Shown here: piece after piece, positions 41,236 to 54,864 of the stretch
How the letters are laid out: the number at the start of each line of letters is the position of its first letter
Numbering within the stretch: position 1 is the stretch's first letter
Assembly (NCBI RefSeq): GCF_039541115.1
Contig: NZ_BAABFP010000008.1
Span: forward strand, 62,001 to 126,000
Length of the DNA: 64,000 nt
Direction of reading: 5' to 3'
Origin: Angustibacter luteus
GTDB lineage: Bacteria > Actinomycetota > Actinomycetes > Actinomycetales > Angustibacteraceae
The notes under the pieces: generated by a model
The model's database searches: none
Told to the model about the DNA's origin: nothing
What the model saw: only the letters and a program-made list of their open reading frames with translations
Position numbers and translations under genes: made by a program

Positions 41236-41934
41236 ATGGACACCCTGCGACACCTCGACGACCGGTTGGCCGTCGCGGTCAACGACTTCGCCCGGCACAC
41301 CGGTTGGCTGCACGGACCGGCCCTGGCCTTCGCCTCCTACGGCGTGCTGCTCTTCGCGGCGCCGCTGGTCGCCGGGGTGGTCGTTTCCCGGCACCGCGGG
41401 CCGCAGGTGCTGGCCGCGGCGGGGTGGGCGCCCCTCGGCACCCTGCTGGCCGTCGCGGTCAACCAGCCGATCGGACGCGCCGTGGCCGAGAACCGGCCGT
41501 ACGTGACGCATCCCCAGTGGCTGCGCCTGGCCGCGCGCACCAGCGACTTCTCGTTCCCCTCCGACCACGCGACCATGGCCGGCGCCGTCGTCCTGGGCCT
41601 GTGGCTGGTCTCCCGGCGGCTGGGACTCGCCGCGGCGGTGCTCGCCGTCCTGATGGCCTTCACCCGCGTCTACGTCGGGGCGCACTACCCGTGGGACGTC
41701 GTGGCCGGGCTGCTGCTCGGTGGCGCGGTCAGCGGGCTCGGCTGGCTGGTGCTGCGCGGACCCTTGACGCGGACCGCCGCCGCGCTGCGGGTCCTGCCCA
41801 GCCTGCGGGCCGTCTTCGCCGCCGATCCCGCCGCTGCAGGGAACGGTCGCCGGGGATGGCAGGATGGTCACCGTCGGACGCCGCGCGCCGACCCCCGCCC
41901 CCGTAGCTCAGGGGATAGAGCAAGGGTTTCCTAA
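41236..41934 (+). CDS. PAP2 family phosphatase; frame extends into tRNA-Arg
   Basis: RP, FSFPSDHA, TRVYVGAHYPWDV. Confidence 0.88.
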   Translation: MDTLRHLDDRLAVAVNDFARHTGWLHGPALAFASYGVLLFAAPLVAGVVVSRHRGPQVLAAAGWAPLGTLLAVAVNQPIGRAVAENRPYVTHPQWLRLAARTSDFSFPSDHATMAGAVVLGLWLVSRRLGLAAAVLAVLMAFTRVYVGAHYPWDVVAGLLLGGAVSGLGWLVLRGPLTRTAAALRVLPSLRAVFAADPAAAGNGRRGWQDGHRRTPRADPRPRSSGDRARVS

Positions 41935-41972
41935 ACCCTGTGTCGCAGGTTCGATTCCTGTCGGGGGCACCA
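41897..41972 (+). tRNA. tRNA-Arg(CCT)
   Basis: GCCCCCG/CGGGGGC acceptor, AGGGT-TT-CCT-AA-ACCCT anticodon arm, GGTTCGATTCC, encoded CCA. Confidence 0.96.
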
Positions 41973-48386: not shown

Positions 48387-48399
48387 AGGGTGGTGCCTC

Positions 48400-48607
48400 T
48401 CCGACGCCTTCGAGGTGAGCTGTCGGGTTCGGGTGGAGAGTTATCACCCGGCCGGTCCCTGCACCTGGACCCCCTGGCCCACGTGCCGGTACCGGCTTCA
48501 CCCCAAGGTCGGCTGCGAATGGCTTCCGCGCCGACCACAAGTGGTTCCCCCGCCTCTGCCAGACGGTGTCGAACGTTCCTCGCGCGCGGTGGCAGAGCTC
48601 GGCGTCC
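48400..48607 (-). ncRNA. c-di-AMP (ydaO/yuaA) riboswitch
   Basis: Minus strand: CGCCGAG..CTGCCA..TGGCAG..GGGGGAACCA..TTGGGGTGAA..CCCGAACCCGACAGCTCACCTCGAAGGCG, directly upstream of a cell-wall hydrolase. Confidence 0.9.
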
Positions 48608-53126: not shown

Positions 53127-53839
53127 GCCCCGACCTGCACACCCTGACCGGTGCCTACGCCACGGACTCGCTGGACGACATCGAGCGCCGCCAGTTCGAG
53201 GCGCACCTGAACGAGTGCGACGCCTGCGCCGACGAGGTGCGCAGCCTGCGGGCGGTGGGCGCCGTGCTGGGCAGCGCCGAGGCGGTCGCCGTGCCGGCGG
53301 CGCTGCACGACTCGGTGATGGCGCAGGTGCGCACCACCCGACAGCTCCCGCCGCTGGCCGACCCCGCGCAGGACCCCAGCCGCGTGCAGTCGATGCTGCA
53401 CCGGGCGCGGACGACGTCCCGGGCCCTGGTCGCCGTCGCGGCCGCCCTCGTGGTGATCGCCGGCGCGCTCGGCGCGGTCGCGGTGCGCGAGCACCAGCAG
53501 GCCGGCCAGGCCCGCCAGCTCGCCACCCAGATGTCCCAGGTCATCGGCGCCCCGGACGCCCACCAGGTGGACGCGGACGGCGCCCGGGTGATCGTGTCCC
53601 CGTCCAAGCAGGAAGCGGTGTTCGTCGGGCAGAACCTGCCCGCGGTGGACGCCGACCACGTGCTGCAGCTGTGGGTGCTGAAGGACGGCGCCCGCTCGGT
53701 CGGCCTGATCGAGGGCTCGAAGCCGCTGCTGGCCACCGGGGTGGGTCCGGACGCCCAGCTCGGGGTGACCGTGGAGCCGGCCGGCGGTTCGAAGCAGCCG
53801 ACCACGGACCCGGTGCTGACGGTGGACCTCACCGCCTGA
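53123..53839 (+). CDS. rskA: Anti-sigma factor RskA with ZAS motif
   Basis: GAYA, FEAHLNECDAC (HxxxCxxC), one TM, QLW, VTVEPAGGSKQPT. Confidence 0.9.
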   Translation: MSPDLHTLTGAYATDSLDDIERRQFEAHLNECDACADEVRSLRAVGAVLGSAEAVAVPAALHDSVMAQVRTTRQLPPLADPAQDPSRVQSMLHRARTTSRALVAVAAALVVIAGALGAVAVREHQQAGQARQLATQMSQVIGAPDAHQVDADGARVIVSPSKQEAVFVGQNLPAVDADHVLQLWVLKDGARSVGLIEGSKPLLATGVGPDAQLGVTVEPAGGSKQPTTDPVLTVDLTA

Positions 53840-53879
53840 CGTGACCGGCCTGACGTGACCGGACTGACGCCGGACTGCC

Positions 53880-54115
53880 GCCGGGCAGGCAGCGGCCCGC
53901 AGGCTGACCCTCCTGATGAGGGCCTGCCGCGCTGGACGAGGCGCGGCTCCTGCGGGCCAACGGTGACTGCCTGGATCTCGCCAGCCGCTCGACGCCCGAA
54001 GGCGCCGGTGTCGGTGGTGGGATCGAAGAGCCCGTCCAAGTCGACGAGCGGCTAGCGGGTAGCCACCTCACGCGTCCGTTGAGAATTCACTAGCGGACCA
54101 CCTCCTTTCCCGTGT
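53880..54115 (-). ncRNA. Unassigned structured RNA carrying a 12-aa micro-ORF (54052-54090)
   Basis: -10 TACGGT, GAAAGGAGGTGGTCC SD, MNSQRTREVATR*, nested stems, cUUCGg loop; family not recognised. Confidence 0.6.
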
Positions 54116-54192
54116 GCGAGAACCGTACGTCGCGGCCCCCGGCCCCGCAACGAGATTCCGCTTCAGCCCGGTCAGCCCGGGTCCAGGCAGGT

Positions 54193-54864
54193 TCAGCGCA
54201 GGGCTGCGGTGTCCCGGGCCAGGGCCTCGATCTCGTGCCAGGCCCCCTCGGTGATCGCGGACCTCGGTGTCAGCCAGGACCCCCCGACGCACGCGACCGA
54301 CGGCAGGGCCAGGTAGCTCGGCGCCGTCGCGGGCGTGATCCCGCCGGTCGGGCAGAACCGCAGGTGCGGCAGCGGTCCGGCCACGGCGGCGAGGTAGTCG
54401 CGGCCGCCGGACGCCTCGGCGGGGAAGAACTTCATCGCCCCGAGGCCGTGCTCGGCCAGCCGCATCATCTCGGTGATGGTGCTCGCGCCGGCCAGCAGCG
54501 GCAGCCCGCTGCCGAGCGCCGCGCGCAGCACGCCGTCCGGTGCGCCGGGGGTCACGATGAAGCCGGCCCCAGCCGCGGTCACGGCCTCCACCTGGGACGG
54601 CGTGATCACCGTCCCCGCGCCGACGAGCATCTCGGGGACCTGGTCCGCGACCATCTCGATCGCGGCCAGCGCGGCCGGCGTGCGCAGCGTGATCTCGATG
54701 ATGCCCACCCCGCCGCGCAGCAGCGCCTGGGCCAGCGGGACGGCGTCCGCGCTGTCCTCGATCACCACGACCGGGATGACCGGCGAGACGCCGAGCACCC
54801 CGTCGACCCGCTCGACGACCCGCTCGCTCACCCGCTCGTCCACCCGCTCGTCCACTGTGCTCAC
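54193..54864 (-). CDS. eda: KDPG/KHG aldolase
   Basis: IEITLRT, VGAGTV, FIVTPG, KFFPA, FCPTGGI, VGGSW. Confidence 0.95.
54806..54853. repeat. 12-bp tandem repeat (acccgctcgnnn x4) encoding xERV at the eda N-terminus
   Basis: Read directly. Confidence 0.8.

Follow-up and report, generated by a model that had tools for sequence, protein, structure and literature searches.

An Ms_IGR-5 RNA of Angustibacter luteus that complements the whole 3' tail of 16S rRNA and may be docked and read by the ribosome

Two described kinds of RNA stand closest to the RNA gene analysed here, which lies on the minus strand in the gap between eda and rskA of Angustibacter luteus, within a 64,000-nt stretch of contig NZ_BAABFP010000008.1 (positions 62,001–126,000; 'the window', whose numbering is used throughout). 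One is Ms_IGR-5 (Rfam RF02471, 'Actinobacteria sRNA', sRNA standing for small RNA), which in Mycobacterium smegmatis is IGR-5, or ncMSMEG15794c (PMC10454040). A family RNA was validated by RNA sequencing in Streptomyces lividans (PMC8079986), and a member is listed as an sRNA transcription unit in S. avermitilis (PMC8780764). In the published passages that name Ms_IGR-5, a set that does not extend to the original description (Li et al. 2013), there is no mention of a complement of the 16S tail, of a micro-open reading frame (micro-ORF) or of a fold. Titles and abstract openings of the literature on small open reading frames (ORFs) and the anti-Shine-Dalgarno (anti-SD) sequence in actinobacteria hold nothing on this RNA, and no function is assigned to the family in the literature searched.

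The other is rreB/rreR of the alpha-proteobacteria. In Bradyrhizobium, rreB is a 165-nt mRNA with a 17-nt Shine-Dalgarno (SD) sequence and a 14-codon ORF, which co-sediments with the 30S subunit, is weakly translated owing to its extended SD, is stabilised when the start codon is removed, and was left with its function unassigned (Hahn et al. 2016, PMC5711450). The rre RNAs and the present RNA are alike in being stand-alone short transcripts with a sigma-70-type promoter and a structured 3' part, and in the rre RNAs at least 16 nt complementary to the 16S tail directly precede an ORF of 12–18 codons whose start is commonly not ATG (PMC5711450). In the A. luteus RNA, 16 of 16 positions of a segment that we call SD1 can pair with the genome's own 16S end, two of them as G-U, and a 12-codon ORF follows. 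The likeness is one of architecture only, across phyla, and two details differ: the rreB complementarity extends as far as into the start codon, and most of the rreB SD is predicted by its authors to lie in a hairpin (PMC5711450), whereas here 4 nt remain before the start codon and covariation gives SD1 no internal partner. Our best reading is that Ms_IGR-5 would be a ribosome-docking mini-mRNA like rreB.

We found four above-threshold matches in an Rfam scan of the whole window, one of which is RF02471 at 53887–54115 on the minus strand (91.6 bits against a cut-off of 45, E = 4.4e-19); the alignment covers the full model (1–184 of 184) and is not cut off. A preliminary description, made from the letters of this stretch, could not assign a family and had itself named a confident Rfam hit as the outcome that would remove the novelty; a full-length, above-threshold match assigns the family, and the novelty of the object is gone. 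The locus is thus a further member of a catalogued, under-described RNA family. At the level of the object it does not differ from Ms_IGR-5, being intergenic and independently transcribed (a -10 element in 43 of 56 homologues, variable neighbours, RNA contigs on 53890–54115). The interpretation does differ, as the Rfam consensus lacks the helices P1 and B-C and the pseudoknot described below. Weak matches of the same stretch to COG3860 RNA (18.3 bits against 42.5) and mir-2766 (21 against 60) are sub-threshold and were set aside as chance. The elements of the RNA, all on the minus strand, are as follows.

53890–54115, minus strand: transcript of about 226 nt, Ms_IGR-5 member (Rfam match and RNA contigs)
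54111–54114, minus strand: P1 5' strand, CACG, pairing with 54072–54069
54095–54110, minus strand: SD1, GGAAAGGAGGUGGUCC, 16-nt complement of the whole 16S 3' tail (sequence, pairing, homologues)
54052–54090, minus strand: micro-ORF, GTG, 11 further codons and TAG, reading MNSQRTREVATR and stop (sequence; frame kept in homologues)
54073–54077, minus strand: D, GGACG (codons 5–6), 5' arm of the pseudoknot, pairing with 53938–53934
54069–54072, minus strand: P1 3' strand, CGUG (codon 7 and the first G of GAGGUG), pairing with 54111–54114
54058–54069, minus strand: SD2/B, GAGGUGGCUACC, in which GGUGGCUACC is the 5' arm of helix B-C (homologue counts, RNAalifold)
53979–54057, minus strand: P2, long hairpin from the stop codon, arms 54057–54040 and 53993–53979 (minimum free energy (MFE) folds; apical part varies)
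53962–53971, minus strand: C, GGCAGUCACC, 16S-tail look-alike within the RNA, serving as 3' arm of B-C (covariation)
53894–53958, minus strand: P3, closing helix 53958–53949/53903–53894 with two hairpins inside (covariation)
53934–53938, minus strand: E, CGUCC, in the loop of the first inner P3 hairpin, 3' arm of the pseudoknot, pairing with D

The counts below refer to 56 homologues, 36 from the same class and 20 from other classes, including three from unpublished genomes (L019, L029, L032). Helices were derived and counted on two structure-blind MAFFT alignments, A1 with the 36 sequences and A2 with the 20. Homologues and compensated helices, for which the preliminary description had proposed to look, were both found.

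The 16S gene of this genome ends in GGATCACCTCCTTTCT, and SD1 can pair with all 16 tail bases, with two G-U pairs and a duplex energy of -29.9 kcal/mol. Pairing over 15 nt with one G-U had been proposed before; the complementarity stands, its extent having been slightly understated. Across the genome (4.16 Mb, both strands), full 16-position pairing is possible at two sites only, SD1 and the antisense of the 16S gene, followed by one site over 15 positions and five over 14. The family is built around the only genome sequence, besides the 16S antisense, able to pair with the whole 16S tail. Among the homologues, pairing can extend over 16 positions in 52 and over 15 in the other four. The six SD1 positions that face a U of the rRNA vary between A and G (27/27, 48/8, 51/5, 38/18, 54/1 and 5/50), the six that face a C are G in 56/56, and the two that face an A are U in 56/56; the four bases just upstream of SD1 vary freely. 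Variation of A with G opposite U, and constant G opposite C, is the pattern expected of pairing to a fixed partner. All five genomes that were checked, each from a different family and two from outside the class, contain the exact tail 16-mer (presence was scored, not position at the 16S end). As judged from these alignments, the homologues show the tail pairing to be under selection.

No internal partner for SD1 is supported by covariation in the homologue alignments. Helix 1 of the Rfam model, which joins GGUGGU of SD1 to GCUGCC, can form in 93% of cells, with no compensatory change and with every shuffle doing equally well; where column 63 changes so as to break it, the compensation is found in B-C. 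A hairpin of the SD1 GUCC with GGAC is paired in 91% of cells in the class alignment but covaries weakly, and it loses a pair in the five CGAC/CGAU sequences and in L024, in which the loop partner E changes instead. Both candidates were rejected.

The micro-ORF is open in 56/56 homologues, and its stop lies exactly three codons past an invariant GAG GTG. The stop codon varies (TAG in 45, TGA in 7, TAA in 4), as does the length of the frame, which is 12 codons in 36 homologues, 13 in 15, 14 in three and 9 in two. The variable part contains no in-frame stop triplet, against 35 and 25 such triplets when it is read out of frame. An open frame maintained throughout, with its end at a constant position, argues for passage of ribosomes, and the comparison among homologues shows frame and stop to be under selection. 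The start codon is TTG in 23, ATG in 18, CTG in 8, GTG in 6 and ATA in 1; an ATG, GTG or TTG is thus present in 47/56, in 45 of them 7–13 nt from GGAGG. CTG replaces TTG throughout one lineage (L013, L015–L017 and L020–L023, family f12), with the next codons, H-K-P or S-E-P, unchanged, and both 9-codon frames belong to the CTG lineage. Two loci of family f7 (L025, L029) also have CTG, and L026 is without any canonical in-frame start. The CTG and start-less loci still keep tail complement, frame and stop.

The peptide itself is conserved differently. Residues 2–4 differ freely between lineages, and a C-terminal ..(R/W)T(R/C)EVA.. recurs. The conserved codons are constant at synonymous positions too, GAG GTG being invariant and codon 10 usually GCT or ACT; the G+C content at third codon positions (GC3) of the real genes in these loci is 0.76–0.97. 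The conservation of third positions and the freedom of residues 2–4 make the peptide a poor candidate for an effector. The preliminary description had suggested either a dual-function sRNA/micropeptide gene or an RNA that captures ribosomes. The design points to ribosome capture and/or a translated micro-ORF, and of the two suggestions the dual-function sRNA/micropeptide is the weaker one: the frame is kept, but conservation of the peptide is limited to the paired parts of the RNA and lies at the RNA level, with synonymous sites included, and the N-terminal codons vary.

The region folds better than shuffled sequence (-130.2 kcal/mol, z = -3.77, 1 of 200 shuffles as good), and the stems downstream of the frame take up about 160 nt. 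Helix P1 closes a loop around SD1 and the start of the ORF; all 4 bp form in 52/56 homologues, and RNAalifold proposed the helix independently. Its variants are compensated (CACG/CGUG, CACA/UGUG, CGCG/CGCG, CAGG/CCUG, CGAG/CUCG and CUUC/GAAG, with one more in an unpublished genome only), and 98.6% and 98.8% of cells are paired against 1–74% with slid partners. The four core pairs of the D-E pseudoknot (GGAC/GUCC) form in 56/56 homologues and the fifth in 45/56, and every variant is compensated: CGAC/GUCG in four, CGAU/GUCG in one, GGAU/AUCC in two and AGAC/GUCU in one. GAGGTG is present in all 56, and in helix B-C the 3' half of the ORF, GGUGRCUGYC, pairs with GGCAGUCACC about 90 nt downstream in 97.2% of cells, with changes on both sides in 5 of 10 pairs; RNAalifold recovers this helix as well. 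In other classes B-C carries a one-base bulge and reads GGUGA/UCACC or GGUGG/CCACC, then CUG/CAG or CCGG/CCGG. There, a first simple search recovered 5 bp only, and a bulge-tolerant 8-bp match is found in at most 19 of 20 sequences, an upper bound since in five the match is not the aligned C block.

The base of P2, in a part poorly aligned by MAFFT, is paired in 75.5% of cells, and the base of P3 has changes on both sides in 7 of 10 pairs. Taken together, D-E, B-C, the P2 base and P3 are paired in 90.9% of cells against 29–45% with slid partners, with 18 pairs changed on both sides against 5–9, and none of 500 shuffles reaches the observed value. Covariation thus supports a new fold in which P1, B-C and the D-E pseudoknot all cross the ORF. 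The stems 53983–53991/54045–54053 (within P2) and 53894–53903/53949–53958 (the P3 base) and two inner hairpins, all drawn in the preliminary description, agree with this model. An outer stem drawn with them, 53886–53892/53967–53973, does not survive: it appears in the MFE fold of a longer piece, but it passes the 3' end of the RNA contig at 53890 and competes with B-C, in which its 5' arm, the GGCAGUCACC block, covaries with the ORF.

In A. luteus, 9 of the 10 B-C positions pair and one is an A-C mismatch. The mismatch arises at window position 54060, where the usual G of GCUGCC is an A; when SD1 is the partner instead, this A replaces a U-G pair by U-A. The SD1-B alternative is nearly isoenergetic with the B-C fold (-117.1 and -116.6 kcal/mol, respectively; a fold that leaves SD1 entirely free is at -110.7), so that the two folds lie only 0.5 kcal/mol apart here; this A may be a lineage-specific shift of a switch, or neutral. 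We also observed that D (GGAC) and C (UCACC), read together, give the GGA..UCACC of the 16S tail, and that E (GUCC) with B (GGUGR) likewise gives the SD1 3' extension, so the internal pairings copy the SD1/tail duplex in two pieces. This may be mimicry, duplication or chance. Between P2 and C, the stretch 53972–53978 (A1 columns 163–169) is unpaired and has a conserved A..CC core across the phylum, GAUCC here and mostly AAUCC elsewhere.

We propose, with a probability of roughly 55%, that Ms_IGR-5 RNA works by being docked and then read by the ribosome, the fold and lifetime of the RNA itself being what is controlled. SD1 would pair with the entire free 16S 3' tail and so dock the 30S subunit; the capacity for this pairing and the selection on it come from the homologues, and binding is what they would predict. 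The loop closed by P1 is the only long unpaired stretch. Within it lie SD1, 4 nt of spacer, the start codon and three codons free of pairing, and structure begins with the D-E pseudoknot, at +14 from the start codon. An mRNA enters the 30S channel at about this distance, so a 30S subunit could dock and the GTG could enter the P site with the fold intact and nothing melted. The ribosome would then read the 12 codons, unzipping the pseudoknot, the P1 3' strand, B-C and the P2 base in turn. With the ribosome at the fixed stop, the internal GAGGUG would sit 6 nt upstream of the codon in the P site, and this spacing may let the motif re-pair with the 16S tail. By analogy with rreB, each passage would unfold the RNA and free its UCACC tail look-alike and 3' half, and its shape and lifetime would in this way be coupled to the availability of ribosomes. 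The RNA most likely acts through the ribosome rather than through the peptide, and our best guess at the cell's gain is a small, self-limiting hold on free 30S subunits. Leader peptides and ribosome-dependent attenuators are similar in that translation of a short ORF remodels downstream helices, but differ in that no regulated gene follows here, the downstream gene being convergent here and in 21 of 28 homologous loci. Ribosome-protected reads have been reported on the MS_IGR-5 homologues of M. abscessus and M. smegmatis (PMC4974804).

Several points weigh against docking and reading. The same authors warn that non-coding RNAs often show footprints through co-sedimentation of ribonucleoprotein complexes (PMC4974804). 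CTG stands at the start position in 10/56 homologues (eight scored as CTG, with L015 and L020 scored by a later in-frame start) and one homologue has only ATA, so translation may be weak or dispensable in these. SD1 sits within the P1-closed loop, and in the MFE of this genome's RNA part of it pairs with the ORF; to keep it free costs about 6.4 kcal/mol (-110.7 against -117.1). Full 16-bp pairing leaves 4 nt between the duplex and the GTG, and in rreB such an extension suppresses translation; overexpression of rreB gave no growth phenotype, and its authors doubt a simple titration of ribosomes (PMC5711450). The 56 homologues are also related to one another, so their counts overstate independence.

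Public RNA data bear on the transcript. Twenty-two runs are listed, of which 20 hold part of a 701-nt stretch around the locus, 18 of these recorded as RNA, and four were examined. In three runs from two studies we found one short contig each, of 215–250 nt, on 53890–54115, 53891–54115 and 53898–54112; the contig of run X1 passes straight into sequencing adapter beyond 53890. These metatranscriptome contigs differ from the locus at 4–5 positions and come from close relatives, not from this strain, and four differences that they share lie in the apical P2 hairpin with the pairs kept (G-U to A-U, C-G to U-G, G-C to G-U). The fourth run (X4) holds short pieces of the conserved 5' part only. In the runs examined no contig lies on the rest of the gap, including the 78 nt between eda and the RNA, or on rskA, and the sole coverage of eda is one 42-base piece (54319–54360, run X1), with none at its 3' part. 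The gap holds a separately transcribed RNA. Contigs can hint at transcript ends, not prove them, and these hint at a 3' end 3–4 nt after the last helix, P3, where there is no U tract. The first base of the RNA (window 54115) is A in 56/56 homologues. IGR-5 of M. smegmatis, termed 'uncharacterized', was recovered by capture of NAD-capped RNA, with an A at +1 and a start 30 nt from the one reported earlier (10.1101/2021.12.14.472595). A 5' cap beside P1 could bear on the stability of the RNA or on ribosome entry.

The promoter candidates lie just upstream.

54145–54150, minus strand: -35-like TTGCGG, 17 nt upstream of the -10 element (sequence)
54122–54127, minus strand: -10 element TACGGT, of the form TAnnnT (sequence and conservation in homologues)

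TAnnnT occurs in 43/56 homologues with its last T 7–8 nt before the first A of the RNA, despite differing upstream genes, and in 29 of those 43 a TTG lies 15–26 nt further upstream. A scan of the locus for promoters and terminators of the E. coli-type consensus returned none of either, which says little for this phylum. The gene eda (KDPG aldolase) occupies 54193–54864 on the minus strand and ends 78 nt before the RNA gene on the same strand, and rskA, which converges, ends at 53839 on the plus strand. An 80-codon ORF at 53829–54071 (minus strand) that overlaps the RNA was rejected as a gene, having no Pfam match and many indels among homologues. As an observation the preliminary description is confirmed: TACGGT (54127–54122), ACAC (from 54115), GTG (54090–54088), the frame (54090–54052) and a second GAGGTGG are all where it placed them, its neighbours are right (KDPG aldolase upstream, RskA convergent), and the discrete RNA of about 235 nt that it expected from near 54115 has its counterpart in the contigs from relatives, which outline a transcript of about 226 nt, with flanks uncovered. 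Its interpretation is partly supported.

For the flanks, the first 30 loci were oriented and genes were called by GC3 and Pfam (85 ORFs scanned). Neighbours are conserved within lineages only: GCV_T with aminotransferase IV, GCV_T with LmeA, MDMPI, acyl-CoA dehydrogenase with LigA, citrate synthase elsewhere, and edd/eda and rskA/sigK here. Among 28 loci with a callable downstream ORF, the closest such ORF runs on the opposite strand in 21, and the seven same-strand ORFs fall into six different Pfam families plus one without a match. No regulated same-strand gene, as a leader or attenuator would have, was found downstream: rskA converges here, as do the downstream ORFs of those 21 loci. Since the flanking genes vary between lineages, Ms_IGR-5 is neither the leader nor the 3' untranslated region (3' UTR) of any one gene; it is the stand-alone RNA gene that had been proposed, equipped with its own promoter. 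Three loci of one genus (g4; L007, L008, L009) differ from each other in their flanks (hydrolase/citrate synthase; PAS/2OG oxygenase; beta-lactamase/an unassigned ORF), so the surroundings of the RNA gene vary even among close relatives.

Ms_IGR-5 is single-copy in the A. luteus genome. With a family model match at E <= 0.001 as the threshold, it was matched in 44 of 151 genomes drawn evenly from the phylum (20 above the cut-off) and in 108 of 151 from the class (107 above), almost always once per genome; these tallies include G000 and the genomes flagged as unpublished (G001, G018, G048, G120, G155, G163, G172, G177, G183, G190). The object itself is ordinary: it adds a copy to a catalogued sRNA family, one often missed by annotation pipelines. 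The family deserves attention, being single-copy, present in about 70% of sampled class genomes and sufficiently abundant to assemble from soil and plant metatranscriptomes, and it is mechanistically interesting: the crossing of the micro-ORF by P1, B-C and D-E suggests concrete mutants with which to ask whether the RNA is a sensor of ribosomes, a parking device for them, or both. A pattern scan (SD1, spacer, GAGGTGRC, stop) returned at least 119 loci, most of them in Actinomycetota. Among the matches listed for RF02471, three loci labelled as Blastocatellia metagenome-assembled genomes (MAGs; L134, L104 and L103) score 52.3, 49.6 and 41 bits against the cut-off of 45, and one labelled as a Syntrophobacter MAG (L094) scores 32.9 bits; loci labelled Ignavibacteria, Terriglobales and Rickettsiales have no match at E <= 0.01 among those listed. 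The family seems to reach past Actinomycetota, with mis-binning of MAGs possible.

Other readings of the RNA share parts of this evidence. It might act on the ribosome as an abundant decoy, covering the whole 16S tail and thereby parking 30S subunits or protecting them, perhaps shielding the tail from single-strand nucleases or from premature initiation in dormancy, with translation of the micro-ORF as the exit. The selected full-length tail pairing, the uniqueness of the SD1 site and the assembly of this RNA, and not of its flanks, in metatranscriptomes would all suit a decoy, as would the finding of rreB mostly in the ribosome fraction (PMC5711450) and the existence of a mycobacterial MazF that removes the anti-SD (PMC12274833). 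It is set against by rreB, which left growth unchanged when overexpressed and was judged by its authors to be far rarer than ribosomes (PMC5711450), and by the literature searched, in which no phenotype is reported for any family member; on balance we think this possible but unlikely. A broader and rather unlikely form, which we offer tentatively, would make Ms_IGR-5, the rre mRNAs and the out-of-phylum relatives the ribosome's counterpart of 6S RNA, a widespread 'perfect mRNA' decoy that parks 30S by whole-tail pairing. As with 6S RNA and Ms1, to which the likeness is one of analogy only, a single-copy, structured RNA, abundant in their case, would imitate the natural substrate of a core machine. 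RNA polymerase lets go of 6S RNA on 'reading' it, by synthesis of a product RNA (pRNA). If the parallel held, 30S would be released only on translating the 12-codon frame, which would unzip the RNA and mark it for decay, and the RNA would set or report the idle small-subunit pool in dormancy and regrowth. The target would differ, being the ribosome in place of RNA polymerase, there is no relation in sequence or structure, and the Rfam scan of the window gave no 6S or Ms1 match.

That the locus is an ordinary small-protein gene, with the 12-residue peptide as effector and the RNA structure tuning its expression, would explain the frame that is open with a fixed stop in all homologues and the recurrent C-terminus. 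This we hold to be improbable, as residues 2–4 are free between lineages, the conserved codons are constant at synonymous sites, the conserved bases are those that pair in P1, B-C and the pseudoknot, and a synthetic RreB peptide was unstructured (PMC5711450). Similarly doubtful is a classical trans-acting, base-pairing sRNA or sponge that works through its SD-like and UCACC/GUCC motifs, ribosome binding being incidental. Rfam does class RF02471 as sRNA, the title of one cited reference places the family in an Hfq pull-down from M. smegmatis, and our model leaves the conserved A..CC stretch between P2 and C without a partner; yet the candidate seeds are occupied by covarying internal helices, SD1 varies at each of exactly 16 positions in the way that fits the 16S tail, and a selected start, open frame and stop have no role in pure base-pairing. 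Least credible by far is a cis element of a neighbour, serving eda as 3' UTR or terminator, or regulating rskA as an antisense or convergent RNA. Position speaks for it, the RNA lying 78 nt past the eda stop on the same strand and converging on rskA, but it is already contradicted by the data: neighbours differ between lineages, the promoter travels with the RNA, and the RNA contigs start at 54115 and leave both the 78-nt gap and the 3' part of eda uncovered.

The remaining Rfam matches in the window are a c-di-AMP riboswitch (RF00379) at 48390–48578 on the minus strand, scoring 52.4 bits (cut-off 38), and two tRNA genes, at 1971–2043 on the minus strand and 41897–41969 on the plus strand.

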